Source: Candidatus Omnitrophota bacterium (GTDB taxonomy: Bacteria > Omnitrophota > Gorgyraeia > Zapsychrales > Aceulaceae). Taken from it: 64,000 bases of DNA. A model generated the notes under the pieces. It had not been told where the DNA came from. It did no database searches and saw only the letters and a list, made by a program, of their open reading frames with translations. A program made the translations under genes and the position numbers. Positions 2,678 to 46,888 of the stretch are shown piece after piece. The stretch spans positions 87,084 through 151,083 of the forward strand of contig JAKQPK010000023.1 in the NCBI GenBank assembly GCA_029564765.1. Reading direction: 5' to 3'. The first letter of the stretch is position 1, and every line of letters begins with the position of its first letter.

Positions 2678-2685
2678 ATATTCTC

Positions 2686-10888: not shown

Positions 10889-10891
10889 GTT

Positions 10892-29768: not shown

Positions 29769-30131
29769 TTACTCCTTTTTCAGGTTCAAGCTAAATTCCT
29801 GACCTTGTCGATACAGCGTAACTGAATCTTGATTCACCGCAGTGACCACAAAACCTCCAATACGGTCTTCGATCTTGACAACCCTGCTGTTGATGATCGC
29901 AAACCTCTCTCCGTCAGGGTCATAGATGACCCCCTCTAAAACCATGTCTGAAAATTGCAAGCTATCATCATAAGATAGGATCGCACCGCTAGATGATACC
30001 AATGGCCAAAATGGATCGCGCCGCCCATGAGAGTCATACATAAAATCTTCTTGCGCAATTGCAAGAGCGGCTGACAAAAACAAGGCCAGGGTCCCTATGG
30101 CTGCAATAAAAAATCGCTTCATCATGCTCAT
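29769..30131 (-). CDS. pilP: PilP-like pilus assembly lipoprotein/periplasmic protein
   Basis: 120 aa with a signal peptide and a C-terminal beta domain resembling the PilP/GspC HR domain. It occupies the pilP slot in pilMNOPQ order. Confidence 0.6.
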   Translation of the reverse strand: MSMMKRFFIAAIGTLALFLSAALAIAQEDFMYDSHGRRDPFWPLVSSSGAILSYDDSLQFSDMVLEGVIYDPDGERFAIINSRVVKIEDRIGGFVVTAVNQDSVTLYRQGQEFSLNLKKE

Positions 30132-30712
30132 TTCTTTTTTACAATAAAAACATTAACTGTAGCCGTGACAATATTCTTCTTAACAGAGCCGGCATCTTTC
30201 ATGATCTCAAAATTATCAATGCTCATAAACGTTTCATCATTTTCCAGCTTGTAAAAAAATGTGCCGATCTCATGGTATCCACCTTCCGCGCTTAAAGCGA
30301 TCGGTAATGAGAAATATTCGCCATGCTCATTACTCAAGACCCTTGTCTCTGCGTTATTTAAAGGTGCGATCTGGTTGATCCTGATCGAGGATTTAGCCGC
30401 CAGCCTGGAGATCTTGTCGATCATCATGATCGCTTCTTCCTTTGGCAGGATACTATTCTCAATCCTGCTTAGCTTATCCTTCAGATTGACTATCTCTTCG
30501 CGGAGAACCGGTAATCGCTGCAGATTGTCTTTTGTCTCCCTAACCCCTTGCGATGTCTCCACAATTTTCTTTCTAGTTGATGCAAGGGCTTGCAACTGAG
30601 GTCTCATGATCAAGAAAAAATCAACAATAACAATAAAAATGATCGCGAAACCTAGCAGGACATAGCTTAGCTGTCTGGTCATTTCTATTTTAGGAAGCAA
30701 TTGTTTATCCAT
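30128..30712 (-). CDS. pilO: PilO-like inner-membrane pilus assembly protein
   Basis: 194 aa with one N-terminal TM helix, a coiled-coil and a periplasmic domain. It occupies the pilO slot. Confidence 0.7.
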   Translation of the reverse strand: MDKQLLPKIEMTRQLSYVLLGFAIIFIVIVDFFLIMRPQLQALASTRKKIVETSQGVRETKDNLQRLPVLREEIVNLKDKLSRIENSILPKEEAIMMIDKISRLAAKSSIRINQIAPLNNAETRVLSNEHGEYFSLPIALSAEGGYHEIGTFFYKLENDETFMSIDNFEIMKDAGSVKKNIVTATVNVFIVKKK

Positions 30713-30713
30713 C

Positions 30714-31307
30714 TTACTTACCGCCTACTTGCAATCGAAGAACAAAATTAGCGATCTCTGTAGTGTTGACCCTGCGACGACCTGTAAAATTCATATCAGG
30801 GTCCTTCAATCCTTTCATGAACAACGAATTGCTACGTAAATTTGTACTGAACGTGTTGACGATATTCGCGTAGTCGCCTTTTTTGGAGACTACGCTTCCT
30901 TCCATGATAAAGTTTTCTTTTGTTAGCGTCATGCGCGCCAACCACGTTCCAGGCGTCATCGCATCACTAACCGCATTCAGCTTTTGGGACCACGAAAGTC
31001 GTTTTCCCGTAGTAACGCTTTCAATGGTCGAAATTTTCTGGCGCAAAACCTTCAACTCCGCCAACACAGCATTAACCTCGGTTCTCTGAGGACCAATGCC
31101 TGCGAGGGATACTTCAATAGCCTTGCACGTCCCCATTTGCACAAATATCGTTAATTGCAATACAATATTAACAATGAACAAAAATGCCAAGAAACCACCG
31201 ACAATACCTATAGAAATTTCCAGCGGAATAGCTTGGACCGCTCGATGGAAGAGTCGATATTTCTTTCGCTTAACAAGTTCTTCGGGGACAAGATTGATAT
31301 TAATCAT
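30714..31307 (-). CDS. pilN: PilN-like inner-membrane pilus assembly protein
   Basis: The N-terminus MININLVPEE matches the PilN INLLP motif, followed by a single TM helix. Confidence 0.75.
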   Translation of the reverse strand: MININLVPEELVKRKKYRLFHRAVQAIPLEISIGIVGGFLAFLFIVNIVLQLTIFVQMGTCKAIEVSLAGIGPQRTEVNAVLAELKVLRQKISTIESVTTGKRLSWSQKLNAVSDAMTPGTWLARMTLTKENFIMEGSVVSKKGDYANIVNTFSTNLRSNSLFMKGLKDPDMNFTGRRRVNTTEIANFVLRLQVGGK

Positions 31308-32391
31308 TTTTTGTCAATGCCAGTCCTAAAGCTACGCATAACTGATCAGCCTGCGCTAAAAAGTCTTGTTTATCAACGTTTCCTGAAAACTCCAAATCAG
31401 GGGACGGGGCCCAAGCCTGAACAGGAATCTCAAGTTCTTTGGTCAAGAAATCTTGAAGGCCCTGCAAGCGCGCTCCCTGTCCAGCTAGCAAAATCTTTAT
31501 AACGCGCGCCCCATCTTCTGAACTAAAATAATCGAAAGAAAGGCGGATCTCTGATACAAAATTCATTAAAACGGGATGACAGGCCTTTAGCACATCTTCC
31601 TGCTTATCTTGAGAGGAACATTTTATTTTTTCCGCTCCTTGAAAGTCCAAACTAAGCAAGCTCATGATCTTCTGGGTAAAATCTTTTCCTCCGATCGCGA
31701 TCTCTCTGGTAAAACGAGGACCATGGTCCCGGAAAATAATAATCGTCGACTTGGCCTCCCCAACGTCTAAAAAGGCAAAAGCTTCCTTTTTTACGCTAGC
31801 CGGCAAAGAAATTGATCGTGTTTCTTTTTGCCCTTCAATGACCGCATTCGCAGCAGCAATCGCATGTAAGCCTATAAAATTCGCTTGTAAACCAAGATTT
31901 GAGATCATCTGCAAGCGATCTTTAACGATGTCCTTTTTTGCTACTGCAACAAGAACCGACATCTTATTGTCTTTTATCTGGCCATCATCGATAATTTGGC
32001 AATCAATATAGATCTCATTGCTCGGGAAAGGAAAATATTTGTCAGACTCGATCAACAAAGAGTCTTTTAACTGCGTGACTGGCATGCGAGGCATTCGAAT
32101 GAAACGGATCAAGGTTCCCTGGCCTGCAAGTCCCGTAAAAACGTTTTTTGACTCACTATCAATCTTTTTCAAGAGATTCCGGACTGCTGAAAGGACATCC
32201 CGGTCATGTACAGGCTCTACAGCCCAATTCATGATCTTAACATTTTTACTAGTCCGGACAACCTCAACCGCCTTGCATTGATAATTGCCAATATCAAGAC
32301 CTATAGAGGTCTCCTGAGGTCCGACAGGGATGTATTTTCTGATTAAAGAAAAATACGTATCTATAATATTTTGAATTTTATGCTTAAACAT
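31300..32391 (-). CDS. pilM: Type IV pilus assembly ATPase-fold protein PilM (actin-like)
   Basis: 363 aa with an FtsA/actin-like fold. It starts the pilMNOPQ block downstream of the pilA terminator. Confidence 0.85.
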   Translation of the reverse strand: MFKHKIQNIIDTYFSLIRKYIPVGPQETSIGLDIGNYQCKAVEVVRTSKNVKIMNWAVEPVHDRDVLSAVRNLLKKIDSESKNVFTGLAGQGTLIRFIRMPRMPVTQLKDSLLIESDKYFPFPSNEIYIDCQIIDDGQIKDNKMSVLVAVAKKDIVKDRLQMISNLGLQANFIGLHAIAAANAVIEGQKETRSISLPASVKKEAFAFLDVGEAKSTIIIFRDHGPRFTREIAIGGKDFTQKIMSLLSLDFQGAEKIKCSSQDKQEDVLKACHPVLMNFVSEIRLSFDYFSSEDGARVIKILLAGQGARLQGLQDFLTKELEIPVQAWAPSPDLEFSGNVDKQDFLAQADQLCVALGLALTKND

Positions 32392-32496: not shown

Positions 32497-32537
32497 AAAA
32501 AACAAAGAGGGCTTGGGATTTCATCCCAAGCCCTCTT
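32497..32537 (-). terminator. Rho-independent terminator downstream of pilA
   Basis: Perfect 15-bp stem (AAGAGGGCUUGGGAU / AUCCCAAGCCCUCUU) with a 3-nt loop, followed by UGUUUUUU on the minus strand. Confidence 0.8.
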
Positions 32538-32557
32538 CAAAAACCACACTTACAGCC

Positions 32558-32947
32558 TTATTGAGCTGTTAACACACCACCTGTTGTAATGGTATAGGTT
32601 GATGAACCTGTAACATTACGCGAGACAGGAGTAGCTGTCAACGTATACCCTGTAGTTGTAAATGTACAGGCGTATGAAAAACCTGACAAATTGCTTCCAC
32701 AGTACGCTGTGTTAAGATAAGGCGGTGTCGCATTCATAAGCGATGTTATTTGAGCTGGATAACTTCCGGTGTTCGCAGTGCCGTATGTTTCAGCTGCCGT
32801 AGAAATGGCGCGAAGAGTGCTCTGCGCTAAGCTATCGTTGGCTGAAAGTCTTGCGCGAAGCAAGTTCGGAATAGCGATCGCGGCTAACAACGCAATGATC
32901 GCAACAACGATCATGATTTCGACCAATGTAAAACCTTTTTTATTCAT
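32558..32947 (-). CDS. pilA: Type IVa major pilin (prepilin with class III signal peptide)
   Basis: MNKKG|FTLVEIMIVVAIIALLAAIAIP has a 5-aa leader, Gly-1, Phe+1 and Glu+5. A C-terminal Cys pair forms the D-region, and the C-terminal part is Thr/Ser/Gly-rich. Confidence 0.9.
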   Translation of the reverse strand: MNKKGFTLVEIMIVVAIIALLAAIAIPNLLRARLSANDSLAQSTLRAISTAAETYGTANTGSYPAQITSLMNATPPYLNTAYCGSNLSGFSYACTFTTTGYTLTATPVSRNVTGSSTYTITTGGVLTAQ

Positions 32948-33091: not shown

Positions 33092-33120
33092 ATTTTACCT
33101 TCACCTCCTTTCATTGTCAA
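33092..33120 (-). promoter_or_regulatory. Candidate sigma70 promoter for pilA (-35 TTGACA, 17-nt spacer, -10 TAAAAT)
   Basis: Minus strand reads TTGACAatgaaaggaggtgaaggTAAAAT, about 140 nt upstream of the pilA ATG. Confidence 0.5.
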
Positions 33121-33216: not shown

Positions 33217-34248
33217 CTATCTTTGGGTGAAGGTTTTCTCGAGGGATCTTTTCTGGCGATCCAAACTTTTGAGAAGGGCCTGAAGCCTGAGCGATTCCTT
33301 ATTAAGATCGTGATTTGCTTTCTGAAGATTATCGATATCAGATCGTAATAAAAGAATTGCCGGGCTCGCAGGGGCCTTGCGTATCGCTTGCCATTCTTTT
33401 CTTTTGGCGTTGAGCAATTCCTGAAGATCCTCGAGGACGGCCTGAGAGGCGACGAGAGTATCAGAGCCCTCATCAGACCCCTCCTTAGAAAAGGAGGCCG
33501 CGAGAATCTTTCCCTGCTTCTCAACAGCCGCTATTTTTTCTCTTGTACTCACCACTTCTGCTTTTAAATGTTGTCGGTCAAGGTTCGCACAGTTGTAAGC
33601 CAAATAACTATCAATGGCCTGTCGGCTAGCAGTTCTCACATCTTGCCCGAGTCGTTGCCATCCTTGATCCTGAGCGCTAAACCAAGCATCCACCCTACTT
33701 TGACCTTCATCAAGGTAGGCGTTTAGCTGCTGATCTTTTTGTTGGCGAGTAAAGAAACTTTTCTCAATGCCTTCAATGTCTTTCGTAGACTGAGATATGG
33801 TCTTTTGCAGCTCCCGGCTCAATTCTTTTTCCTTGTTAATAGAATTCGCAAGGCTCGCTTTCTCTTGGATCAGGGTCAAATATTTCTTATCAAGATTCCC
33901 AGATTGCTCAAGAAAAAACAGCATTTTCTCCTGGTGATCATTCAGCAAGGCTTCAAGTTCCCTTGATTGAGAGCTCAACAAAACAAGATCTGACAAAAAA
34001 CCATACGCCTGCTGATTTAAGTTCTGGATGGAAGTCTTAAGGCGCATATTCTCAGTTGAAAGCAAGGCATTTGTCCTCTGCAGATCCTTTGTGGCTTGAT
34101 CAAGAGCTTCTAGCCCATGATACCAGCGATCAGCCAGGCGAAAAGGGGCCTGTGCACTATCGAGAGGCTGAGCAAAAGCGCTGGATGCTGCTAGCCATGA
34201 TCCTATTAACAAAAAACAAATCAAACGCACGTTGATCCCTCGCTTCAT
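33217..34248 (-). CDS. Hypothetical secreted Gln/Leu-rich coiled-coil protein (343 aa) encoded inside the pilB-pilC-pilA region
   Basis: Signal peptide (…AASSAFA|QP), extensive heptad-like Q/L/K/E-rich sequence and an internal EGSDEGSD repeat. It starts 2 nt after the pilC stop. I recognise no family. Confidence 0.6.
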   Translation of the reverse strand: MKRGINVRLICFLLIGSWLAASSAFAQPLDSAQAPFRLADRWYHGLEALDQATKDLQRTNALLSTENMRLKTSIQNLNQQAYGFLSDLVLLSSQSRELEALLNDHQEKMLFFLEQSGNLDKKYLTLIQEKASLANSINKEKELSRELQKTISQSTKDIEGIEKSFFTRQQKDQQLNAYLDEGQSRVDAWFSAQDQGWQRLGQDVRTASRQAIDSYLAYNCANLDRQHLKAEVVSTREKIAAVEKQGKILAASFSKEGSDEGSDTLVASQAVLEDLQELLNAKRKEWQAIRKAPASPAILLLRSDIDNLQKANHDLNKESLRLQALLKSLDRQKRSLEKTFTQR

Positions 34249-34249
34249 A

Positions 34250-35458
34250 CTAACGGATAGCTGATGTTAAGCTAATGATCGGTAAAAATAACGCGATAAC
34301 GATGAACCCGACAACGATCCCCAGAAAACCAATGATCAAAGGTTCGATCATGCTGGTCAATCCAGCGACAGCCGCGTCAACTTGGTCCTCGTAGAATTCA
34401 GCGATCTTTGTCAACATGGTATCAAGTTTTCCTGTCTTCTCTCCGACGGAAATCATGCGTGTAACCATCTGCGGAAAAACACCGCTTTGGATCAACGGTT
34501 CAGAAATACTTTCTCCTTCTTGAATATGTTTTGCCGCATCCTCGACCGTTAGCTCAATAACACGGTTTCCAGAACTCTTCCCAACAATGTCCAACGCCGT
34601 TAAAATAGGCACGCCGCTTTGAATCAAGGTCGCCAATGTACGACTAAACCGGCTCAATGCAACCTTTTGGATCAGCGGCCCAAAGATAGGAAGTTTTAAG
34701 CTTATCCTATCTATCTGGAGGCTTCCAGCTTGAGTCTTTTTATAATTCACAAAAAAAACAAAACCAGCGATCCCTGCTAAGACCAACCATAAAAAGCTAG
34801 CCTTCAGATTATCGCTAATAAAAATAAGGATCTGCGTCATTCCCGGCAACTCTTTGCCTAAGGACTCGTAGATCCCCTTAAATGTTGGAACAACTTTTAC
34901 AAGCAAAAGCACTGTGATCAGAACCGCCATGGTGATGACAACGGCTGGATACACCATGGCAGACTTCACTTTGTTGCGAAGCTTTAGCGCTTTCTCCATA
35001 TAGCCAGCGATACGATCCAATAAAGCGCTCAAAGCCCCTCCTGTTTCTCCAGCCTTCACCATGCTGATAAATAAACTGTCAAAAACTCTTACGTGCTTGG
35101 AGAATGAAGCTGAGAGACTATTACCAACAGAAACATCTTCACGAACAGCGCTGATCACACTTTTAAAATATTTCTGGGTCACTTGCTCTTCCAGAGCTTC
35201 CAAGCTTTGCAAGATAGGGATCCCAGCATCGATCATCGTTGAGAGCTGTCGAGTAAAGATCACAAGGTCTTCTGATTTAACCTTTTCTTCGCCAACTGAA
35301 AAATCCTTCAAAGAAAAGCCCCGGTCTTCTTCAACTGAAATAATGATCAAGCTTCGCTTGCGTAACTCCTTAATGACAAGTTCCTTGCTTTCGGCCGTAA
35401 CTTTTCCAGTAACGGTCGTTGCGTTCTCGTCTTTTGCGATGTATTTGAATTTTGCCAT
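34250..35458 (-). CDS. pilC: Type IV pilus inner-membrane platform protein PilC (GspF family)
   Basis: 402 aa with duplicated GspF-type domains and three TM segments, downstream of the pilB ATPases. Confidence 0.9.
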   Translation of the reverse strand: MAKFKYIAKDENATTVTGKVTAESKELVIKELRKRSLIIISVEEDRGFSLKDFSVGEEKVKSEDLVIFTRQLSTMIDAGIPILQSLEALEEQVTQKYFKSVISAVREDVSVGNSLSASFSKHVRVFDSLFISMVKAGETGGALSALLDRIAGYMEKALKLRNKVKSAMVYPAVVITMAVLITVLLLVKVVPTFKGIYESLGKELPGMTQILIFISDNLKASFLWLVLAGIAGFVFFVNYKKTQAGSLQIDRISLKLPIFGPLIQKVALSRFSRTLATLIQSGVPILTALDIVGKSSGNRVIELTVEDAAKHIQEGESISEPLIQSGVFPQMVTRMISVGEKTGKLDTMLTKIAEFYEDQVDAAVAGLTSMIEPLIIGFLGIVVGFIVIALFLPIISLTSAIR

Positions 35459-35493
35459 TACATTTTTCTCCCTATTTTAAAAGCTGACGCTAA

Positions 35494-37200
35494 TCAATCT
35501 TCTGAGGTAACACGCAAAACCTCCTCGACTGTTGTCTTGCCGGACACAAGCTTTTCAACAGCGTCCTCCCACAAGGTTGTCATGCCTTTTTTCATTGCAT
35601 AATCTTTAATAGCCGATGACGATGTTCCTTTGATCAGCATTTCACGGACAGCCTCATCGACTTCTAGAACCTCTAAGATGCCCATACGGCCATAGTATCC
35701 GGTGTGACGACAAAAATCACAACCTTTCGCGGTAAACAATGCCGTTTCCGGCTTGATACGCGTCGCGAAACCTTTGAGAACATGATCAGGAATATCCGCG
35801 GGCTCTTTGCATTTAGGACAAAGTGTCCTGCACAAACGCTGCGCGCAAATCGCAATAACACTTGATGCAACCAAAAAAGATTCAACGCCCATATCCACAA
35901 GACGCGTTAAAGCGCCGGCTGCGTCATTAGTATGCAAAGTAGACAGGACAAGCTGTCCTGTTAAGGATGCCTTGATCGCAATATCTGCTGTTTCTGAGTC
36001 GCGGATCTCTCCCAGCATAACAACGTCAGGACTTTGACGCAAGATGGCACGCAACCCAGAAGCGAATGTCAAGCCAATGTCTGATTTGATCTGGATCTGA
36101 GTCAAGCCATCGACCAGATACTCAACAGGATCTTCAACGGTAATAATATTCTTATCCGGAGTATTCAACTGGCTTATGATCGAATAAAGTGTCGTTGATT
36201 TTCCGCTTCCCGTAGGACCGGTCACAAGGATCATGCCAAAAGGTCGCGCGATCGACTCCTTAAGTCTCTGGGCGGGCCCTGGAGAAAAACTTAGACCATC
36301 AAGCCCCATCGAAAGATTCATTTTGTCTAAAATACGGATAACCACTTTTTGTCCGTAGGTCGTCGGAAGAAGCGATACGCGAAAATCAACTTCGCGAGAT
36401 TGTAGGCGCATTTTAAAGCGTCCATCTTGGGGTATCTGCATCTCCGTAATGTCAACACCAGACATGATCTTGATACGAACGATGATGGCGTTCTGGTTCA
36501 CCTTAGGAATGCTCAAAACCTCCTGCAGAACTCCGTCAACCCGATAACGAACACGCGCATCCGATTCCGCGGGCTCGATGTGGATATCCGAAGCCCGCTG
36601 CTTAATGGCCTCACGGATGATCAGATCGACCATGCGCACAATAGGCGCCTGACCGCTTTCTTCCACATTGATCGCGGCGAACTCCTGAGCGCCTTTATCG
36701 TCTACGACTTGAAAATCTTCCGTATCAATGTCGCGGCTGACCTCAGCGACACTTTGGATGTCGGCTGAACCATAATATTCATCGATCGCTTGCGCGATCT
36801 TCGCATTTTCGCTCAAGACAACATCGACGTTCCTGCCTGTCAAAAGCTTTAGATCGTCAATGGCAAAAATATTAAACGGATCCGATAATGCAACGGTCAC
36901 GGTATTGCCCAACCTCGATATAGGGATGATATGATATTGTCGCGCGATTTTCTCAGAAATGATCTCTTTAAGATTAGGATCGATCTTATATTTTGCGAGA
37001 TTAATAGTCGGGATATTGAGCTCCCGAACCAAAAGGCTTAATAAGTCTTGCTCAGAGATCAGGCCTTTTTCAATAAACGCTTTTTCCAGGCTGATGGATC
37101 TCTTTTTGTGGAGCGTGACGGCCTCTTCTACATCTTTTTCTTTAATGTGATGCAGCTGTGCGAGCGCTTCAAAAACTTTTTCCTTGATCGTTTTGGCCAT
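35494..37200 (-). CDS. pilB: Type IV pilus assembly ATPase PilB (GspE family), 568 aa
   Basis: GspE N-terminal domain, Walker A GPTGSGKST, Asp/His boxes and a tetracysteine motif (CPKC...CDFC). Confidence 0.9.
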   Translation of the reverse strand: MAKTIKEKVFEALAQLHHIKEKDVEEAVTLHKKRSISLEKAFIEKGLISEQDLLSLLVRELNIPTINLAKYKIDPNLKEIISEKIARQYHIIPISRLGNTVTVALSDPFNIFAIDDLKLLTGRNVDVVLSENAKIAQAIDEYYGSADIQSVAEVSRDIDTEDFQVVDDKGAQEFAAINVEESGQAPIVRMVDLIIREAIKQRASDIHIEPAESDARVRYRVDGVLQEVLSIPKVNQNAIIVRIKIMSGVDITEMQIPQDGRFKMRLQSREVDFRVSLLPTTYGQKVVIRILDKMNLSMGLDGLSFSPGPAQRLKESIARPFGMILVTGPTGSGKSTTLYSIISQLNTPDKNIITVEDPVEYLVDGLTQIQIKSDIGLTFASGLRAILRQSPDVVMLGEIRDSETADIAIKASLTGQLVLSTLHTNDAAGALTRLVDMGVESFLVASSVIAICAQRLCRTLCPKCKEPADIPDHVLKGFATRIKPETALFTAKGCDFCRHTGYYGRMGILEVLEVDEAVREMLIKGTSSSAIKDYAMKKGMTTLWEDAVEKLVSGKTTVEEVLRVTSED

Positions 37201-37205
37201 TATTT

Positions 37206-38933
37206 CTATACTTTCTCATCTACGGCTGTCACCCGGACAACTTCTTCTATCGAGGTAAGTCCCACCGCGGCTTTTAACAAAGCATCTTCGCGCATTGTTA
37301 CCATACCTTCCTGTCGAGCCATTTCTTTTATCTTCATTTCCCCTGCATGGTCAAGGATCAGCTTTTTAACAGTGGGTGAAAGCAGCATGACCTCCGTTAT
37401 GCCCACCCGCCCTCGATATCCAAGATCGAAACAATGTCGGCACCCTTTGGCCTTAAAGAATGTTGGTTTATGTTCGAGCTTCATCGTTGAGAGGCCGAGC
37501 TTTTGGACTAAGTAATCTGGGACATCATAAGGCTCTTTGCATTTATCGCACAGCTTACGCAAAAGCCTCTGAGCAACAATGGACAAAACAGACGAACAAA
37601 TAAGAAAAGGCTCAATGCCCATATTCATCATACGAATAATGGACCCAGCGGCTGTTGTGGTATGCAGCGAACTTAAAACTAAGTGTCCCGTAAGGGCCGC
37701 CTTCACCGCCACGTCCAAAGTTTCAAAATCCCTGATCTCCCCGATCATGACAACATCAGGATCCTGGCGCAAGATCGCCCTTAAGGCTGAGGCAAAGGTC
37801 AGGTTGACCTGGGGCTTAATATTAACCTGATTGATCCCTTTCATCTGGTATTCGACCGGATCCTCAACCGTTACAATGTTCTTTTCGGTGGAGTCAATAA
37901 ACTTTAGAACAGAGTACAAGGTTGTTGTTTTCCCGCTTCCAGTCGGCCCGCAAGTCAGGATCATGCCGTGGGGTTTACGTGCGCATTCGCGTAAAACATC
38001 CAATGCTTTCGCGTTAAATCCTAATTTAGTCAGATCTAGCATAGCCGCGTTCTTATCTAAAACTCGCAAGACAACTTTTTCTCCAAAAGCTGTCGGCAGA
38101 ACGCTGACGCGGAAGTCAACCTCTCTCTTTCGGTCTGTCACAGCCTTGAAACGTCCGTCCTGAGGAAGGCGATGCTCAGAAATATCCAGATTGGACATGA
38201 TCTTGATACGGGAGACGACAGGAAAATGGAGCGTTTTTGACATCCGATCAACTTCGCGAATGATACCATCAACACGATAGCGAATGCGCAACGCTTTCTG
38301 TAAAGGCTCAACGAAAATATCGCTGGCTTTCGCAGCAATAGCCTGACGAATGATCGCATCCGTCAATCGGATCGTTGGCGCGTCCTCAGCCAAATTCTCG
38401 ATCTTCTCTTTGTCGATCTGCTTTTGACCTTCTTTGACAAGCTCCATCTCTTCCAAGCTTGAAATATCTTTCATAATATCTTCAAAGGCTTGCATTGCAT
38501 CTTCAGAATAAAAAATACCGATCGCCCTCTCGATCTCTTTAGCAGAAGCTGCAACGCCACATACCTTAAGACCTGTCAACGCATTAATATTGTCGATCGT
38601 TAGCACATCAGAAGGATTAGCCATAGCCAAAAAAAGCGTCCGGCCCAAACGAATAATAGGGACAACTTGATAATTAATGATCACGGATTTTGGCAGGATA
38701 TCAAGGACTTGCTTTTCAACTCTGGCATCAGCGATATCAAAAGATTGACGGCCGATTTTGTCAAGCATCGCTGAAACTAATTTGCTTTCTGAAACAGTAT
38801 CTGATTGAATAAGGATATCCATGAACAGAAGGTTGTCCGCTTCGGCGGTGGATACCGCGCGATCTAACGAAGCGTCATCTACGAGCTTTGCTTCCAGCAG
38901 AAAGCTTTTTAGATATTCAACGGGCGAGAACAT
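37206..38933 (-). CDS. Second full-length PilB/GspE-family secretion ATPase paralog (575 aa)
   Basis: GspE N-domain, Walker A GPTGSGKTTT, a conserved core and a tetracysteine motif (CDKC...CRHC). Tandem to pilB with a 5-nt gap. Confidence 0.88.
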   Translation of the reverse strand: MFSPVEYLKSFLLEAKLVDDASLDRAVSTAEADNLLFMDILIQSDTVSESKLVSAMLDKIGRQSFDIADARVEKQVLDILPKSVIINYQVVPIIRLGRTLFLAMANPSDVLTIDNINALTGLKVCGVAASAKEIERAIGIFYSEDAMQAFEDIMKDISSLEEMELVKEGQKQIDKEKIENLAEDAPTIRLTDAIIRQAIAAKASDIFVEPLQKALRIRYRVDGIIREVDRMSKTLHFPVVSRIKIMSNLDISEHRLPQDGRFKAVTDRKREVDFRVSVLPTAFGEKVVLRVLDKNAAMLDLTKLGFNAKALDVLRECARKPHGMILTCGPTGSGKTTTLYSVLKFIDSTEKNIVTVEDPVEYQMKGINQVNIKPQVNLTFASALRAILRQDPDVVMIGEIRDFETLDVAVKAALTGHLVLSSLHTTTAAGSIIRMMNMGIEPFLICSSVLSIVAQRLLRKLCDKCKEPYDVPDYLVQKLGLSTMKLEHKPTFFKAKGCRHCFDLGYRGRVGITEVMLLSPTVKKLILDHAGEMKIKEMARQEGMVTMREDALLKAAVGLTSIEEVVRVTAVDEKV

Positions 38934-38936
38934 ATA

Positions 38937-39380
38937 TTATCCATAATGTTTCTTGATAGCCGCGCGCACATCTGTCGCCGTGCTGACAAAAGCCTGAACG
39001 GAACAATGCGTCAGCGCCTCAACTTCTTCAATGGAGCCTGTATGCAAAGGATTGGCCATGGCCAAGGTCAAGCTAGCTCCGATCTTATCAATTGGTATCA
39101 GGCAATGCTGACGGCAGACGTCAGCAGAAACAGCTGACAAAACCTCGGGCTCTATCTCATAGTTGGATAACGGAAGATAAGGAAAACCGTACTGGGATGT
39201 CAAGGCCTGAGCAATATCCTCTTCCGAAGCGTACTTAAGGAACATCAGCGCCTCTCCCAGCAGGCCACCTTTCTCCTTCTGATACTCAATGGCTTCCTGC
39301 AACTGGTGGACATTGATCACTCCACGCTCTACAAGAAGATCCCCGATAAATTTTGGATTAATTCGCTTATATCCTTGCAT
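38937..39380 (-). CDS. Standalone T2SS-E N-terminal (MshEN-like) domain protein, 147 aa
   Basis: FIGDLLVERGVINVHQLQEAIEYQ and LLGEALMFLKYASEEDIAQALTSQ resemble the two tandem 24-residue MshEN motifs (xLGxxLLxxGLLxxxxLxxxLxxQ). It sits 3 nt upstream of the ATPase paralog. Confidence 0.7.
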   Translation of the reverse strand: MQGYKRINPKFIGDLLVERGVINVHQLQEAIEYQKEKGGLLGEALMFLKYASEEDIAQALTSQYGFPYLPLSNYEIEPEVLSAVSADVCRQHCLIPIDKIGASLTLAMANPLHTGSIEEVEALTHCSVQAFVSTATDVRAAIKKHYG

Positions 39381-39451
39381 AAGAAACCATATTGGTCTTT
39401 ATATTATCGCATGAATGGATTATTTTCATATAAAACATTAAAAATTTCAAA

Positions 39452-40558
39452 TCAAAACATTTTTCGCTGACGGGCCAAGCTCAACAAAAAACCAAACATC
39501 AAGATGCATACCAGAAAAGACGAACGTCCGTAGCTCACGAACGGCAAGGTGATCCCAACGATAGGACAAAGGCCCAGAACCATGCCAATATTGATGATAA
39601 CCTGAAGGGCAAAGATCGCAACGATGCCTGCCCCCGCCAAGTGGCTAAATTTTTCTTTAGTTTGCTCAACGGCGCGGAGCCCGGACAGGATCAACAGATA
39701 AAAACAAACAACGACAATAACGCTGCCGACAAAACCCCATTCTTCCCCGATCACGGAGAAAATAAAATCCGTATGTCGTTCTGGCAAGAAATTCAGCTGA
39801 TTTTGAGTCCCCGAAAGCCATCCTTTGCCAAAAATCTGACCAGATCCGATAGCGATCTTGGATTGAATAATGGTATAGCCAGCCCCTAATGGATCGACAT
39901 TGGGATTCAAGAAAACAAGCAATCGATCCTTTTGATAAGGCTTCATCATATGCCACAATATCGGCATCGCTAAAAGACACACGCCCAAGAACCCTCCCAA
40001 ATGCTTGGTAGAAACCCCTGCTGCAAAAGCCATAACAAAAAAGATCCCAACCAGCAAAATGGCCGTTCCAAGATCTGGTTGCTTAAAGATAAGGATCGCC
40101 GGAGCGGCCGTCATCGCGAAAGGAATAAAGAAATCAGAAACGATCGCCGGCCTTGACCATGGATTATAAAAGGAAACCTTGGGTTTATGGTCGGTATAAT
40201 AACGCGCCAACGCCAAGATCAAGGAAAGCTTCATAAACTCAGAGGGTTGAAAATTAAAACCAAAAATTTCGATCCATCGCTTTGCACCTAAAGCGTAGTA
40301 TCCGAAAAGAAAGATCGCGACCAGTAAAAAAACGTTGATGCCATAAGCAATATACGCAAGGTCATAGTATCTGCGATGGTCAACACGCCCTAAAAAAAAG
40401 ATCGCGACTACACCTAGAATAGAGAAAACGAGCTGATTATAAAATACTTCCTGTGTGACACGTGAATTCTGAAAAGAGGCGCTAAAAAGAGCAAGCAAGC
40501 CAGAAACGATGATGATCATAAGGCTAACCCACATGGCTTTTTTGAGATCTGATAGCAT
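39452..40558 (-). CDS. rodA: SEDS-family peptidoglycan glycosyltransferase RodA (FtsW/RodA/SpoVE family)
   Basis: 368 aa, polytopic. Adjacent to PBP2 and mreBCD, so assigned as RodA rather than FtsW. Confidence 0.85.
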   Translation of the reverse strand: MLSDLKKAMWVSLMIIIVSGLLALFSASFQNSRVTQEVFYNQLVFSILGVVAIFFLGRVDHRRYYDLAYIAYGINVFLLVAIFLFGYYALGAKRWIEIFGFNFQPSEFMKLSLILALARYYTDHKPKVSFYNPWSRPAIVSDFFIPFAMTAAPAILIFKQPDLGTAILLVGIFFVMAFAAGVSTKHLGGFLGVCLLAMPILWHMMKPYQKDRLLVFLNPNVDPLGAGYTIIQSKIAIGSGQIFGKGWLSGTQNQLNFLPERHTDFIFSVIGEEWGFVGSVIVVVCFYLLILSGLRAVEQTKEKFSHLAGAGIVAIFALQVIINIGMVLGLCPIVGITLPFVSYGRSSFLVCILMFGFLLSLARQRKMF

Positions 40559-42265
40559 CTAAAGGATTTCCAGGGCTTTCATTTCTTTAAGCAATTGCGC
40601 GCTAACACGGCACGCGTTATAACTAGATCCCCCATATTCTAAAAAAACACAGAATGCAATGCGTGTCTTTGCTGATGGGCAATATCCAACGAACCAGGCA
40701 TGATGTTCTTGATTCCCGGAAGACTGGGCTGTTCCTGTCTTGCCGAGAACGAGAAGGTCTTTCATGAAAACAGCGCGCGCCGTCCCTCCTTCGCCTGCGA
40801 CAGCCGCTCGCAAGCCCTCCTTAACTTGGTCTAAAATATTCTTCGGCAAATGAATAACGCGCGCTACTTGCCCCTGGGGTTGCGCATGGGCACCGATGGA
40901 TTGTGCGATATACGGTTGTATTTGGCGGCCATCTCGAGCAACGGTCGCGATCATGTTCACTATCTGGATCGGGGTCACCAAAAGATCACCTTGTCCAATA
41001 GAAAAATTGAGGGTGTCTCCCTTGCTCCATCGTCGAGCACGAAAACCATCTGGATGCGGAACATGGCCGCGTTCTTCATACGGCAGGTCGATCTTTGTAA
41101 AAACCCCTAACCCAAAAAGGCGGGCATACTCTTCCATCAGCTTAGGGCCAATGATAAGGCCTGTATTAAAAAAATAAACATTGCACGAATGACCAAGCCC
41201 CTGCGTAAAATCCTGAGCACCATGGGTATGGGAACAACGAAAGGCGCGATTTCCCAACGTATAAGACCCATGGCAAACAAAGGTCGTATGCGGATTGATC
41301 TTTTTTGTGTAAAGGCCAGCGATCGCTACCGGGATCTTGAACACAGACCCGGGAGGATACTGTCCCCGGATCGCCCGATTGAACAAGGGAGCGCGAGTAT
41401 CGGTAAAATATCGCACGCGATTGTTTGAGGCAGCCTCGCTCGCGAAATCATTAGGATCAAAGCTAGGCGCACTGACCATCCCCAGGATCGCCCCATCGTC
41501 TAAATTCATAACAATGATAACGCCTCGCTGCTCTCGCATCAGCGTCTGAGCTATCTGCTGGATACGCGCGTCAAGCGTGGTCATTACGTCTTCGCCTGGA
41601 TGAGCGACCTTCATACCTAAAACACGAACTTGCTGCCCTCGGTTATTCACCTCGATCTGAAGTCCACCATTGACACCTCTCAACATCTGATCATACTGCT
41701 CTTCGATGCCGGAATAGCCCATTACACCATCTATCGTGTAACCATATTCTTTAAGTCTTTCGATCCGTTCTTGGCTCATTTTAGCAACGTATCCTAGGAC
41801 ATGAGCCCCCGCTTCCCCAAAGGGATAATGCCTGCGAGATCGCACCTGAACGAGAAGGCCAGGAAAACGAAATTTATTCTCTTCTAAAATGATCGCTTTT
41901 TCCCGAGGAACATCCTCCGCGATCACAACAGGGGCGAACGATGCCGTTCTTTTTCTCTGATAGATCGCGTCTATCCTCCCTTGACCAAAGCCTAGGACGC
42001 TTCCCAAAAAAGAAAAGAGCTCATCTCTGTCCTGCAACTCTTGCGGGATGACCAAAACATCGAATGCGGCTAATGTATCAGCTAGGGCGATGCCGTTACG
42101 GTCCAGGATGCGCCCACGATTGGAATGCACGGGAACAACGCGGATACAATTGGAAACGCTCAATTGTTGATAGTATTCACCTTGAAAGATCTGAGTATAA
42201 CCCAAACCAACGATCAAGATGATAAAAGAGAATGTGATAATTACTTTGAAACTTTTAAGGCGCAT
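40559..42265 (-). CDS. mrdA: Penicillin-binding protein 2 (elongasome transpeptidase)
   Basis: 568 aa with an N-terminal TM helix, a PBP dimerisation domain and a transpeptidase domain containing the SVFK motif. Located next to rodA and mreD. Confidence 0.9.
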   Translation of the reverse strand: MRLKSFKVIITFSFIILIVGLGYTQIFQGEYYQQLSVSNCIRVVPVHSNRGRILDRNGIALADTLAAFDVLVIPQELQDRDELFSFLGSVLGFGQGRIDAIYQRKRTASFAPVVIAEDVPREKAIILEENKFRFPGLLVQVRSRRHYPFGEAGAHVLGYVAKMSQERIERLKEYGYTIDGVMGYSGIEEQYDQMLRGVNGGLQIEVNNRGQQVRVLGMKVAHPGEDVMTTLDARIQQIAQTLMREQRGVIIVMNLDDGAILGMVSAPSFDPNDFASEAASNNRVRYFTDTRAPLFNRAIRGQYPPGSVFKIPVAIAGLYTKKINPHTTFVCHGSYTLGNRAFRCSHTHGAQDFTQGLGHSCNVYFFNTGLIIGPKLMEEYARLFGLGVFTKIDLPYEERGHVPHPDGFRARRWSKGDTLNFSIGQGDLLVTPIQIVNMIATVARDGRQIQPYIAQSIGAHAQPQGQVARVIHLPKNILDQVKEGLRAAVAGEGGTARAVFMKDLLVLGKTGTAQSSGNQEHHAWFVGYCPSAKTRIAFCVFLEYGGSSYNACRVSAQLLKEMKALEIL

Positions 42266-42729
42266 TTTTTAAAGAAAAGGAACGCATAAGGTCCAATAGC
42301 CGTTGTTGTAATGATCTCTGGAATGGCCAGAAACCAAGCGATATCCCTAAATCCTCCCGAAGCGAAAAAAGCTGCTACAATATAAAGAATCGAAACATTT
42401 AAAGCGCTCAAAAAGAACGCAAGCGCAATCTTAAGATATAGAGCATCGATCTGAAAAATATATTTTTTAAGCAGCAAAACGATATAGGAAGAAATGATAA
42501 AAGAAAAAATATTAACGCCGAACACCCCTACCAAAAGACTGTCCTTAAGAAGCCCAGCTGCAACGGCAGCCCACAGACCATAACGCGAACCCCAGAACAG
42601 ATTGATAAAAATAACGAACAGGATCAGAAAGTTCGGCTTCACCCAGAAGCTGAAAACATGAAAAACACCTATCTCGATGAGAAAAAGCAGATAACAGCTT
42701 ATCAGGATCCATAAAGTTTTCTTGATCAT
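42241..42729 (-). CDS. mreD: Rod shape-determining protein MreD
   Basis: 162-aa polytopic membrane protein immediately after mreC. Confidence 0.7.
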   Translation of the reverse strand: MIKKTLWILISCYLLFLIEIGVFHVFSFWVKPNFLILFVIFINLFWGSRYGLWAAVAAGLLKDSLLVGVFGVNIFSFIISSYIVLLLKKYIFQIDALYLKIALAFFLSALNVSILYIVAAFFASGGFRDIAWFLAIPEIITTTAIGPYAFLFFKKCALKVSK

Positions 42730-42740
42730 AGGATATCTTA

Positions 42741-43526
42741 TTAACGATCGATAACGACAAAAACCTCTTCCAACTGCGAGAAGACGACTGCAGGCTTAAT
42801 CAGACAATCAAGCGTAGGACTTGCAAGATTTTCTTGGACATCGATAATGCGCCCGATCAGGAGCCCTTCTGGAAAAAAAGAACTGATCTTCGAGGTCACG
42901 ACAATATCACCGACCTGAACATCCGAGGTCACAGGAAGGTATTGCAAGCGACACGTCCCTCGAAGCGTTCCAGAGACAACGCCCTGATCGCGCGTGCGCT
43001 CAAGGGAAGCCGCAACGCTAAATCGAGAGTCAGTCAGCATTGTCACTTTCGCCAGCTGATCCCCGACCTCTGAAATTTTTCCAACAACCCCAGAGGACGT
43101 GACGACTGGCATTCCTTGCCGCACACCCTGTTTCTTTCCCTTATCAATAATGATAGCCGCTGACCAATTCGCCGGATCGCGCATAAGCACATGGGCTGCG
43201 ATTAAGGAAAAAGAAGACTGACGCTTAAAATCCAACAACGCGCGCAAACGGGCATTTTCTTTCAAGACCTCTTCCTGCTGCCAAGCCTGCTGGACCAAAG
43301 GCTCCATTTGTTTCTTAAAAACTTGATACTCATTATAGGTCTTGTGATAAAAAAGGATCTTTCTTATTTCTCTGAATGGGAATAACGCGACCTGGATCGG
43401 CCATGAACTCGCCTGGAGGACATCTGTTTTCAGATTAGAAAAAAGTTGCTGCGGAAGAAAAAGGCAAATAAAAGCGGTAGTAGCGATCAGGAAATAAACT
43501 AGAGCTTTCTTGGATTTCTTAAGCAC
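42741..43526 (-). CDS. mreC: Rod shape-determining protein MreC
   Basis: N-terminal TM helix and coiled-coil, with an MreC beta-domain block (GMPVVTSSGVVGKISEVG...MLTDSRFSVAA). Confidence 0.85.
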   Translation of the reverse strand: MLKKSKKALVYFLIATTAFICLFLPQQLFSNLKTDVLQASSWPIQVALFPFREIRKILFYHKTYNEYQVFKKQMEPLVQQAWQQEEVLKENARLRALLDFKRQSSFSLIAAHVLMRDPANWSAAIIIDKGKKQGVRQGMPVVTSSGVVGKISEVGDQLAKVTMLTDSRFSVAASLERTRDQGVVSGTLRGTCRLQYLPVTSDVQVGDIVVTSKISSFFPEGLLIGRIIDVQENLASPTLDCLIKPAVVFSQLEEVFVVIDR

Positions 43527-43550
43527 ATCAACTCACTACTCGTTATGCGA

Positions 43551-44624
43551 TCAATATTCAAATCGGGTAGGAACAACAAGGCCTCGTCGAAGGCGAGCCG
43601 GCATATCGAGCGTCTGCCCTGTGCCTAGAACGACCGCGGTTAAAGGGTCATCGGCAATGTGCACAGGAAGACCAGTTTCTTCAGAGATCAGTTTATCCAA
43701 GCCGCGCAACATCGCTCCCCCGCCGGCCATAACGATACCGCGATCAATCAGATCGGCAGCCAATTCAGGCGGCGTGTGTTCCAGTGTCGCTTTCGATGCC
43801 TCTACAATAGCGCGCACAGGGCCTTGCAAAGATTCGCGAACCTCGACAGAAGTGATCGTGATCGTCTTAGGTAGGCCAGAAATAAGATCGCGGCCACGAA
43901 CATCCATCGTTAGCTCTTCGTCCAATGGATAGGCGGATCCGATACGGATCTTGATCTCTTCCGACGTGCGTTCACCGATCATCAAATTATAATTCTTTCC
44001 TAAATAATCCATGATCGCCGCGTCCATTTCATCTCCAGCGATACGGATCGACTGCGCGTAAACAATGCCACCTAGGGATAAAACCGCGAATTCCGTGGTC
44101 CCTCCTCCGATATCAACGATCATATTTCCGGCGGGATCTTCAACTGGAAGGCCGGCTCCGACCGCTGCGGCCTTTGGCTCTTCGATCAGATCAACGGAAC
44201 GCGCTCCCGCTCGCTCGGCTGAATCCTTGACCGCTCTTTTTTCAACTTCCGTGATCCCTGAAGGGATCGCAACGACCATCGCTGGCCTAGCGATCACAAA
44301 TCGCCGATGCACTTTCTTAATAAAATACCGTAGCATCGCTTCAGTGATCTCAAAGTCAGAAATGACACCATCCTTCATAGGGCGCACCGCGACAATATTG
44401 CCGGGCGTTCTTCCGAGCATACGCTTTGCCTCTTCGCCAACAGCGATCACTTGACCTGTTTCTTTATGAAGAGCAACGACGGAAGGCTCGCACAAAACCA
44501 CTCCTTCTCCTTTGATGTAGACGAGTGTTGTCGCTGTGCCAAGATCGATCCCCATATCATTAGAAAAAAGACCAACGATATAATTGATCGTCTTTTTAAA
44601 TATTTTCCAGAACTTTTCCCACAT
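43551..44624 (-). CDS. mreB: Rod shape-determining actin homolog MreB
   Basis: [27 protein letters not shown] aligns with the MreB N-terminus. Actin/Hsp70 fold motifs are present. Confidence 0.95.
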
Positions 44625-44698: not shown

Positions 44699-45991
44699 TT
44701 ATCTTTTTTTAAGCTTCGCTCCGATTTCCTGAAGATCTGATATAAAATCAGGATAAGATTTCCTAACACACTCAATATCCTTGACTTGCGTCCCTATTTT
44801 TAGCCCTAAAACGCTAAATGCCATTGCCAAGCGATGATCCTGGCGAGGATCCAAAATAACATCCTGTCTGTAAAAAGCTTGAGGGTAAATGGTTAATGAG
44901 TCTTTTTCCTCTCTGATACAAGCCCCTATCTTTAAGAGTTCCGATCGAAGATCACTAATACGATCAGATTCCTTTGCGCGCGCGTGAGCAATATGACAAA
45001 GTTTTGTTCTGCCCTTAGCAAAAAGCGCTAAGACAGCCATAATAGGAACCAGATCTGGACAATCACGCAAAGAAAAAACGCCTCCAGAAAGAAGATGTGG
45101 TCCTTTCACCTTAAGGGACGTCTTTGTCTTTATGATCCGCGCGCCCATACGCTTTAAAAAAGCCATGATCTGGCCATCTGCCTGGACCAGCTCATCACAA
45201 AAGAAACCCTGCAAAGTCAACTGAGACCTGCTTAAGATCCCTGCCGCAAGCAAAAAAGCAGCTAATCCGTAATCCGAAGGAACGGTAAACTGTCCCAACC
45301 CGCTATATTTCTGTTCGCCCTTAATGACAAAGCGTGCGCTAGATGCCTTATCGATCTTAATGCCGGCTTTTTTTAAAATAGCCAAAGTCATATCAACATA
45401 AGTTTTTGAAACAGCTGTCTTGCCCGTGACTTTCAAGGTCGTATCTTTTTGTAAAAAAGGACACGCGATCAGTAAGGCAGAAATAAATTGGGAACTCAGT
45501 GATCCATCGATCGAAATATTGCCTGAACGCAAGAAGCCTTTGTTAATACGGATAGGAATGGTTTCTTTTAGGCCTTTTCCTCTCACATCACGACCCATGC
45601 GCCGCAAAGTTTCTGTTAAGAATTTATTAGGCCTTGATCGCAGTGTCCCTTGTCCCAACACCATGCTAGGGCCAGGCCTCAGCGCCAATAGCGGCAAAAG
45701 GAACCGCAGTACAGTACCTGATTCTCCCACAGAACATTTAAGAAGATCTTTTGTAAAGTTAAAATCAGCTTGGATCGTGATCGTTCGACCATCAGCGGAA
45801 ATGATAACACGTGCGCCCAGAGCTTTGGCAGCGTCCAACGCTCGTCGCACATCATCACAGGACGAAACGTTTTGAAGAATGGAACGACCGCCGCAGGCCG
45901 CGACGATCACTGAACGAATAGAATATGACTTAGAGGAAGGCGATCTGACCGCTCCCCGCAGGTAAGGCGTAGGCCGAACGTCAAGTATCAT
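44699..45991 (-). CDS. aroA: 3-phosphoshikimate 1-carboxyvinyltransferase (EPSP synthase)
   Basis: SKSYSIR, DGSLSSQFISALLIA, ESDRI and DHRLAMAFSVLGL blocks match AroA rather than MurA. Confidence 0.85.
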   Translation of the reverse strand: MILDVRPTPYLRGAVRSPSSKSYSIRSVIVAACGGRSILQNVSSCDDVRRALDAAKALGARVIISADGRTITIQADFNFTKDLLKCSVGESGTVLRFLLPLLALRPGPSMVLGQGTLRSRPNKFLTETLRRMGRDVRGKGLKETIPIRINKGFLRSGNISIDGSLSSQFISALLIACPFLQKDTTLKVTGKTAVSKTYVDMTLAILKKAGIKIDKASSARFVIKGEQKYSGLGQFTVPSDYGLAAFLLAAGILSRSQLTLQGFFCDELVQADGQIMAFLKRMGARIIKTKTSLKVKGPHLLSGGVFSLRDCPDLVPIMAVLALFAKGRTKLCHIAHARAKESDRISDLRSELLKIGACIREEKDSLTIYPQAFYRQDVILDPRQDHRLAMAFSVLGLKIGTQVKDIECVRKSYPDFISDLQEIGAKLKKR

Positions 45992-46791: not shown

Positions 46792-46888
46792 AGATAACTC
46801 CTTTATAAATAAATTTTTATTAAACTTATTATAAAATAAACCCCAATGAAGTAAAGAGAAGTTTCTGGAAAAAGGGCTGTCGTGAAAA

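Follow-up and report, generated by a model that had tools for sequence, protein, structure and literature searches.

Why should a type IV pilus operon with a single platform protein encode two complete extension ATPases, preceded by a gene for nothing but their N-terminal domain? The question is raised by a 64,000-nucleotide stretch of a Candidatus Omnitrophota genome (assembly GCA_029564765.1, contig JAKQPK010000023.1, positions 87,084 to 151,083; hereafter the window, meaning the whole stretch analysed), in which an earlier note had pointed to three consecutive genes with GspE N-terminal domains. These are three successive minus-strand open reading frames (ORFs), with pilC as the next gene and a pilin gene and pilMNOPQ beyond it: N147 (38937-39380), a stand-alone MshEN/GSPII protein of 147 residues; PilB1 (37206-38933), an ATPase of 575 residues; and PilB2 (35494-37200), an ATPase of 568 residues. 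Gaps of 3 nucleotides separate N147 from PilB1, 5 nucleotides PilB1 from PilB2, and 35 nucleotides PilB2 from pilC. A scan with Pfam hidden Markov models, together with the coordinates, bears the note out on this composition and order, two full-length PilB-type ATPases included. The explanation that we favour, with a confidence that is about even, is that two extension motors, neither of them redundant, work on one PilC/PilMNOPQ pilus, while a receptor domain for cyclic di-GMP (c-di-GMP) acts in trans. Its key lies in an asymmetry which the note had missed: judged by motif, the c-di-GMP core is kept by the stand-alone proteins and lost from the N-terminal domains of the ATPases themselves.

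The family of the two ATPases comes first. PF05157 (MshEN, formerly T2SSE_N) matches N147, PilB1 and PilB2 (E = 1e-16, 4e-13 and 8e-23), and PF00437 (T2SSE) matches the two ATPases (E = 1.7e-138 and 1e-136), which are 42% identical to each other over 556 residues. For both, the best-scoring family is PilB, TIGR02538 (637.0 bits for PilB1, 628.8 for PilB2), matched end to end (residues 9-569 and 10-566 on model positions 3-563); both scores fall below the equivalog cutoff of 675.65 bits, as might be expected of a divergent phylum. Scores against GspE (TIGR02533; 565.8 and 598.7 bits, cutoff 630.25), TfpB (NF053534; 445.6 and 488.1 bits, cutoff 850) and PilT (TIGR01420; 183.7 and 186.4 bits, against 319) are likewise under their thresholds. 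Both proteins have the PilB architecture of an N-terminal N1D, an N2D and a C-terminal ATPase in about 560-590 residues and, unlike the N1D-less PilT and PilU of ~345-385 residues, carry an N1D and a tetracysteine. Their neighbours are pilC, pilMNOPQ and a pilin gene, not gspC-M or gspL, and their best solved matches in a PDB search are the PilB proteins of Geobacter and Myxococcus. On these grounds PilB1 and PilB2 are best classed as type IVa PilB-type ATPases rather than as GspE, PilT or TfpB.

The catalytic residues have fared well in both. Walker A reads GPTGSGKT and GPTGSGKS in the two ATPases, the Asp box VEDPVEY, Walker B with its catalytic Glu DVVM(I/L)GEIRD, and the tetracysteine CDKC...CRHC in PilB1 and CPKC...CDFC in PilB2. 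The description of each ATPase as complete holds for the N-domain, Walker A, Asp box and tetracysteine, but a full His box is found in PilB1 only; in PilB2 the first His is replaced by Gln (Q416, in LTGQ), and the second, which senses the gamma-phosphate, is kept. Walker A, the Asp-box Glu, Walker B with its Glu, the second His and the four Cys are at least 90% conserved across 72 + 66 orthologs of the two. Residues aligned with R257, R271, R286 and R455 of Geobacter metallireducens PilB, which act there as arginine fingers and inter-chain contacts (PMC5424180), are kept in the orthologs of both paralogs as well. Since the catalytic and arginine-finger residues are in place, PilB1 and PilB2 both look catalytically competent, and a role in pilus extension is predicted for each.

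What sets the two apart is concentrated in the His box. PilB2 Q416 aligns with H413 of G. metallireducens PilB, which together with H420 sandwiches T411 at an inter-chain contact (PMC5424180). LTGQ occurs in every PilB2-type sequence with a readable motif and LTGH elsewhere, while PilB1 has a clade-specific His box, LTGH...LHTTTA, where other sequences mostly show LHTNDA. Among 171 non-ortholog sequences placed in a tree (the best representatives of a library of 1.84 billion proteins, plus named references), the H413 equivalent is His in 158, unreadable in 8 and Gln in 5, all five inside the extended PilB2 clade. This conserved change from His to Gln offers a ready-made test of the inter-chain role proposed for the His box. 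A bootstrapped neighbour-joining tree built on the ATPase cores supports the PilB2 clade at 88 and an extended PilB1 clade at 72. The two are not sisters, and both fall among PilB proteins (Acinetobacter baumannii PilB, Neisseria gonorrhoeae PilF), apart from two GspE references, on one of which the tree is rooted; its deep nodes have bootstrap values of 0-1. Tree placement and family scores agree that neither ATPase is an ordinary GspE, an outcome that the earlier note had left to phylogeny. As the deep branching order is unsupported, we confine any dating to this: by tree and signatures, the paralogs are old and distinct, and do not stem from a recent duplication within the genome.

Nor is the arrangement confined to one genome. 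N147 has 2899 database homologs (E <= 1e-5), and the best 120 of these are nearly all stand-alone proteins of 147-150 residues with 63-98% identity, those that are named being from Candidatus Omnitrophota or Omnitrophica. Two of these homologs were followed on their contigs, where the genes stand in the order seen here, and a contig scan with one genome per species confirmed at least 555 relatives. In 82 distinct loci fetched for analysis, the order rodA-N147-PilB1-PilB2-(optional MshEN2)-pilC recurs throughout, MshEN2 being a second stand-alone MshEN protein. Both full-length ATPases stand in the order N147-PilB1-PilB2-(MshEN2)-PilC in 65 of the 82, and the loci without PilB2 are all cut by a contig end except one (L072), which has a 5-kb insertion. 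rodA lies upstream of N147 in 73 loci, and the genes are as tightly packed as in the window (median gaps of 3 nucleotides from N147 to PilB1 and 4.5 from PilB1 to PilB2). The labels of these relatives are discordant, many third-party annotation (TPA) bins being named 'uncultured Planctomycetales' and one 'Ca. Elulimicrobium sp.'; the attribution to Omnitrophota as a whole rests on the bins labelled Omnitrophota or Omnitrophica, on Ca. Aceula and Ca. Gygaella (Omnitrophota in the NCBI taxonomy), and on shared synteny.

Because this gene order recurs throughout the relatives, we regard the module as a phylum-level trait and not as the quirk of one genome; by synteny, it is the standard layout of the Omnitrophota type IVa pilus locus. 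The idea of a departure peculiar to this locus, which the earlier note had conveyed, is abandoned. The note had also left room for a tandem arrangement that was common and already described in the clade: common it proves to be, but we found no description of the module in the literature on Omnitrophota PilB, PilT or pili, or on stand-alone MshEN proteins. Omnitrophota genomics has recorded clusters for type IVa pili in almost every class and has proposed them as central to an attachment or predatory lifestyle (PMC10066038), with no mention in that work of PilB, duplicated or otherwise, of PilT or of c-di-GMP.

The constancy of the module bears on what the two ATPases serve. Each of the 64 loci with a readable interval has a single pilC, and the ATPases are never apart, and for these reasons the suggestion that one paralog works for another pilin set is disfavoured. 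The broader proposal, in which one ATPase drives this pilus and the other a pseudopilus like that of type II secretion, a competence pilus or a pilin set encoded elsewhere, appears to us quite unlikely. It could draw on the rule that multiple PilB homologs usually fit distinct machines, as do MshE and PilB of Vibrio cholerae (PMC11656802), on the position of PilB2 nearer to GspE than PilB1 (599 vs 566 bits) and on the remainder of the genome outside the window. Yet extension ATPases are generally platform-specific (PMC11656802), the module offers one platform, both paralogs score higher as PilB than as GspE and stay under the GspE cutoff, and the genes around them are pilMNOPQ, not gspC-M.

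A further possibility is that one paralog was recruited as a retraction motor in place of PilT. When every ORF of 50 residues or more was searched by phmmer with the two ATPases as queries, no further T2SSE-family ATPase, pilT and pilU included, came to light in the window, and Peptidase_A24, the prepilin peptidase family, was not found among the Pfam-scanned ORFs between 17.7 and 63.8 kb. To this extent the absence of both functions noticed earlier stands, and with it the altered His box of PilB2 might speak for such a recruitment, as might the bifunctional or motor-independent retraction known from other type IV filament systems. The absence from the window says little, however, because Omnitrophota do encode PilT, next to the module in some relatives. 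In two divergent relatives a PilT-type gene of 355-358 codons lies immediately upstream of N147-PilB1-PilB2-pilC (locus L092, positions 2678-3754, and the contig of protein P0135); this type of PilT (358 residues, AETGHLV...) has close homologs that are 80-87% identical, and those named as Candidatus Omnitrophica PilT, canonical members of the family, are 82-84% identical. Moreover, neither paralog has lost the N1D or the tetracysteine, two features that characterize the PilB/GspE clade and that PilT and PilU lack, and we consider the use of either paralog in retraction very unlikely.

The small protein ahead of the two ATPases comes next. The AlphaFold2 model of N147 is confident (mean predicted local distance difference test, pLDDT, of 86.6) and has the two-subdomain MshEN/GSPII fold. 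With Foldseek, its best solved match is domain GSPII-A of Thermus PilF (9g1w; TM-score 0.84), followed by MshE with c-di-GMP (5htl; 0.76-0.80) and 8pdk (0.66-0.68), and the model also superposes on the PilZ-binding N-domain of Xanthomonas PilB (7lkm). An exact-sequence look-up of N147 returned no record. A recent origin of N147 by copying and truncation from one of the neighbouring N-domains was considered and rejected, as N147 scores 82 bits to the N-domain of Myxococcus xanthus PilB, 57 bits to the PilB2 N1D and 38 bits to the PilB1 N1D.

Residues 11-63 of N147 (39192-39350, minus strand) comprise a pair of MshEN-type motifs, each of 24 residues, on either side of a spacer of 5 residues: FIGDLLVERGVINVHQLQEAIEYQ-KEKGG-LLGEALMFLKYASEEDIAQALTSQ. 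Neither motif has lost L2, G3, h17, h21 or Q24, the spacer length is exact, and these features are near-invariant across the family. Against the profile NF053729 (c-di-GMP_motif), which has a cutoff of 38 bits, N147 scores 60.5, PilB2 21.9 and PilB1 nothing. The same contrast runs through the relatives: scored as hG..hh...hh....h...h..Q, the core motif is present in 73 of 75 N147 proteins and, in at least one copy, in all 33 MshEN2 proteins, but in none of 73 PilB1 and none of 67 PilB2 N-domains, in which G3 and Q24 are lost. Because N147 alone among the three N-domains of the window keeps this core, the nucleotide-regulated partner evoked in the earlier note has become plausible, as a putative receptor separate from either ATPase.

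Further proteins related to c-di-GMP signalling appear in and around the module of other Omnitrophota. Of 64 loci, 33 have MshEN2 (140-177 residues) in the interval from PilB2 to pilC (L001:14036-14497, and L014, L016 and L019-L021, for example), which gives some Omnitrophota four MshEN-type domains in a row; in the window this interval amounts to 35 nucleotides (35459-35493) and has no such gene. Directly upstream of N147, often overlapping its start, 27 of 73 loci encode a HAMP-GAF-GGDEF-family protein of 470-488 residues (as at L001:8571-10004, between rodA and N147). As diguanylate cyclases these proteins were rejected, because RFGDHEF replaces GGDEF or GGEEF in a degenerate active site and the RxxD I-site is lacking; they are probably sensors or receptors, and support a link to signalling of the c-di-GMP type rather than local synthesis. 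One locus, L091 (a relative of Ca. Gygaella obscura), has a 1388-residue protein with GGDEF, STAND-type NTPase and HEAT-repeat regions (7724-11890) between PilB2 and MshEN2, and a radical-SAM gene between rodA and the GGDEF gene; further GGDEF proteins lie near the module in L091 and L092.

How would the receptor act on the motors? A search of representative sequences with PilB1, carried out exhaustively, revealed a natural fusion of 765 residues (P0132; L084:8001-10298), in which an ortholog of N147 comes first (114 bits) and is followed by a PilB1-type ATPase. A TGQ-type PilB2 (10305-12017) and pilC (12052-13263) come next on the same contig. Since this fusion exists in nature, it argues that N147 works physically with PilB1, a partnership deduced here from sequence. 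The linker of the fusion is rich in Gly, Arg and Asn and about 45 residues long, the contig has 62.5% GC, and the module adjoins glycosyltransferase genes there instead of rodA. Distance covariation controlled for RodA is, for N147, highest with the PilB1 N1D (0.66), and reaches 0.78 between PilB2 and PilC and 0.75 between the cores of PilB1 and PilB2; as the genome pairs are not independent, these partner preferences are statistically weak and are taken as suggestive hints only.

From these elements a mechanism can be proposed. The locus would be the motor end of a standard Omnitrophota type IVa pilus operon, whose two anciently diverged and non-redundant PilB-type ATPases would both serve the single adjoining PilC/PilMNOPQ machine. 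As a detached MshEN domain, N147 would most likely sense c-di-GMP on behalf of the motor, in trans, by docking on it with PilB1 as the preferred partner, and the level of c-di-GMP would then gate pilus extension. In the version that we prefer, PilB1 with N147 would constitute a c-di-GMP-gated priming motor and PilB2 a processive motor coupled to PilC. Such divided roles are suggested by resemblance to Acinetobacter baylyi, in which two extension motors, PilB and TfpB, act on one type IVa pilus; the proposal there is that TfpB primes assembly, which PilB then sustains (PMC11656802).

Several observations weigh against this proposal, most of them concerning the ligand. At position 1 of the MshEN motifs, N147 has no Arg: Phe, His or Gln is found in motif I and an invariant Leu in motif II, where in addition a Lys takes the place of Gly at position 10. 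These are the positions, 1 in either motif and 10 in motif II, at which N147 fails the relaxed motif published in 2016, [RKPN]hG..hh..[GAS].... GSPII-A, its closest solved relative, is the one domain of PilF that does not bind c-di-GMP (PMC11731258). The GGDEF domains next to N147 in relatives, with GDHEF and without an RxxD, are too degenerate to be cyclases, and no gene of this kind is present in the window. On the side of the motors, we infer the protein-protein contacts of N147, PilB1 and PilB2; the covariation was built on related genomes; the node that separates the paralogs is among the unsupported ones of the tree; and a second pilC or pilin set may lie elsewhere in the genome, beyond the 64 kb of the window.

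The first of these points could also be taken to mean that N147 acts without a ligand, as an adaptor or as a decoy that competes for the N1D docking site on PilM, PilC or the ATPase, hence as an assembly factor or an inhibitor comparable to motor-protein inhibitors. The replaced Arg and Gly and the non-binding character of GSPII-A would then be expected. The strongest conservation of N147 (QYGFPYLPL...CLIPIDKIG) falls in the C-terminal subdomain, the half that binds GspL or PilZ in relatives (7lkm, 2bh1), and its mean pairwise identity of 66%, against about 50% for the N1Ds of the ATPases, is what an interface with several partners would predict. A pure scaffold would nevertheless have no need of the near-invariant L2, G3, h17, h21 and Q24 with their exact spacer, nor of a score above the NF053729 cutoff, and the recurrence of GGDEF-family neighbours also argues against it. 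Moreover, high-affinity binding independent of Arg is documented: GSPII-B of PilF has an affinity of 6 nM for c-di-GMP although position 1 of its motifs is Lys and Leu, after which the consensus was extended in 2024 to two copies of (R/K/L)LGxx(L/V/I)(L/V/I)xxG(L/V/I)(L/V/I)xxxxLxxxLxxQ with a 5-residue spacer (PMC11731258). Motif II of N147 agrees with this consensus except at position 10, and the homolog in L092, a deeper member of the N147 family, agrees with it in both motifs. We hold a role without ligand to be unlikely, and regard N147 as a putative partner that acts on the motor in trans, as an adaptor or, in our preferred reading, as a c-di-GMP receptor.

The relation between the two ATPases is open to another interpretation, in which PilB1 and PilB2 form one obligate hetero-oligomeric ring, for instance an alternating A3B3; the His-box changes would then be mutual adaptations across the A/B interfaces, and N147 a regulatory subunit that can detach. 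We consider this interpretation doubtful, though it is not without arguments. The genes are never separated and their gaps of a few nucleotides suggest translational coupling and 1:1 synthesis; the signatures of both paralogs sit in the His box, which in G. metallireducens PilB sandwiches T411 at the contact between chains and senses the gamma-phosphate (PMC5424180); and the covariation of the two cores points the same way. In fourteen clusters (at 50% identity) of proteins of ~980-1050 residues, one short N-domain precedes a pair of complete PilB-type cores, and a Walker A, a His box and cysteines occur in either core (P0121-P0131, P0133, P0134 and P0136), and such double-core single chains make rings of non-identical cores plausible in the superfamily.

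These double-core proteins, however, do not belong to the 95-member clade in which both paralog groups are found, and show neither the Q nor the TTT signature. Neither paralog has lost any of the arginine fingers and interface residues that a homohexamer of its own would need, and all the solved PilB, PilT and GspE rings matched in our PDB searches are homo-oligomers. We also infer that a 3:3 ring could not set identical subunits opposite each other, unlike the C2-symmetric cycle described for PilB (PMC5424180). A wider form of the same idea, held just as tentatively, would make the obligate heteromeric motor, with N147 as its c-di-GMP-sensing subunit and the H to Q and ND to TT changes co-adapted at alternating interfaces, an ancestral and phylum-wide trait of the ultra-small and probably host-dependent Omnitrophota. 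If true, the ring would be the first natural hetero-oligomeric one, set against the solved PilT-like ATPases matched in these searches.

The favoured arrangement of two motors and a separate receptor can be set beside known systems. As in A. baylyi, where one pilus needs two phylogenetically distinct PilB-type ATPases and a small accessory protein, the inhibitor CpiA, modulates a motor (PMC11656802), two PilB-type ATPases stand here with a small protein; but there is no TfpB ortholog, the genes are strictly adjacent and conserved across the phylum, and the accessory protein is a detached MshEN domain and not CpiA. Thermus thermophilus PilF likewise has several MshEN-type domains per motor, of which some alone are fit for c-di-GMP binding. 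The earlier note saw in the three genes a PilF split apart, and the likeness has some basis in the match of N147 to GSPII-A and in the N147-PilB1 fusion, which makes a two-MshEN ATPase. Whereas PilF has three tandem GSPII domains on a single polypeptide that forms a homohexamer, the domains are here spread over three genes with two ATPase cores, each ATPase has one N1D, and N147 ends at its own stop codon. Multi-GSPII architecture has so far been reported only in PilF homologs of Deinococcus-Thermus (PMC11731258); two PilB-type proteins with three or four tandem MshEN domains and near-canonical motifs (P0138, 1005 residues, and P0140, 1080 residues, the latter from a Nitrospirae/Nitrospirota bacterium and with a Cys-rich C-terminal tail) extend that range, being outside those reports.

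V. cholerae MshE, M. xanthus PilB and Clostridium perfringens PilB2 share with N147 the fold and the tandem 24-residue motifs, in a domain tied to the control of pilus extension. Their binding is in cis, whereas here the domain with the motifs is separate, the N1Ds of the ATPases are degenerate and the Arg of position 1 is replaced. In the FimX-PilZ-PilB pathway of Xanthomonas and Pseudomonas a c-di-GMP signal also passes through a separate small protein onto the N-terminal region of the motor (PMC8389850, and in line with the 7lkm fold match), but the sensor would here be an MshEN domain, not an EAL/PilZ pair, and no PilZ or FimX gene is found in the module. PilT and PilU, finally, are two tandem paralogous PilT-like ATPases, one of which depends functionally on the other (PMC11656802); they are retraction motors without N1D, unlike the two PilB-type ATPases here with their N1D and Zn-binding tetracysteine.

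None of these compared systems has two adjacent PilB paralogs together with a detached MshEN gene. The module is real, widely conserved, undescribed and amenable to experiment; it is made wholly of known parts, and is a variant of known pilus machinery. A co-inherited PilB pair with a split-off receptor domain provides a natural system for three questions that a review of PilB has left open, namely the role of N1D, the need for two extension ATPases in some bacteria and the existence of heteromeric extension ATPases (PMC11656802).

There remain the rest of the operon and its surroundings. The window is almost entirely coding on the minus strand, with a GC content of about 45%. The platform protein PilC (34250-35458, minus strand, 402 residues) is the only one of the module and is recognized by two Pfam T2SSF repeats and by the NCBIfam PilC/GspF families. 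Between pilC and the pilin gene lies a gene for a 343-residue protein (33217-34248, minus strand) with no Pfam or NCBIfam family match, which by eye has a signal-peptide-like N-terminus and heptad- or coiled-coil-like repeats; a protein of similar size holds the same position in the close relatives L003, L004 and L006. The type IV pilin (32558-32947, minus strand, 129 residues) carries an N_methyl motif, and is followed by pilM (31300-32391), a pilN-like gene (30714-31307), pilO (30128-30712), a pilP-like gene (29769-30131) and the pilQ secretin gene (28350-29765), all on the minus strand.

Pattern scans placed a promoter-like site upstream of the pilin gene (33092-33120) and a terminator-like hairpin with a 17-bp stem and a T-run just past it (32503-32539). 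The counts of such patterns in the window do not exceed shuffled expectation, and the 17-bp hairpin past pilA alone stands out. An Rfam scan of the whole window found two tRNAs only, and no c-di-GMP riboswitch near the operon.

Upstream, mreB, mreC, mreD, the PBP2 gene mrdA and rodA (39452-44624, minus strand, identified by Pfam and synteny) are conserved neighbours, rodA ending 71 nucleotides ahead of N147 (gap 39381-39451). In the window and in 73 related loci this cell-shape operon, mreB-mreC-mreD-mrdA-rodA, always precedes the pilus operon on the same strand, a constant adjacency which may reflect co-regulation of elongasome and pilus genes. From ORF sizes alone, the first 17 kb of the window look like rpoBC, ribosomal-protein and elongation factor genes. 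Farther upstream of the pilus operon, between a gene of the EPSP-synthase family and the lgt region, an ORF of 344 codons (45988-47022) has no Pfam match; it overlaps an ORF of 296 codons (46889-47779), which is the positional counterpart of a pseudouridine synthase gene in L001 and L003.

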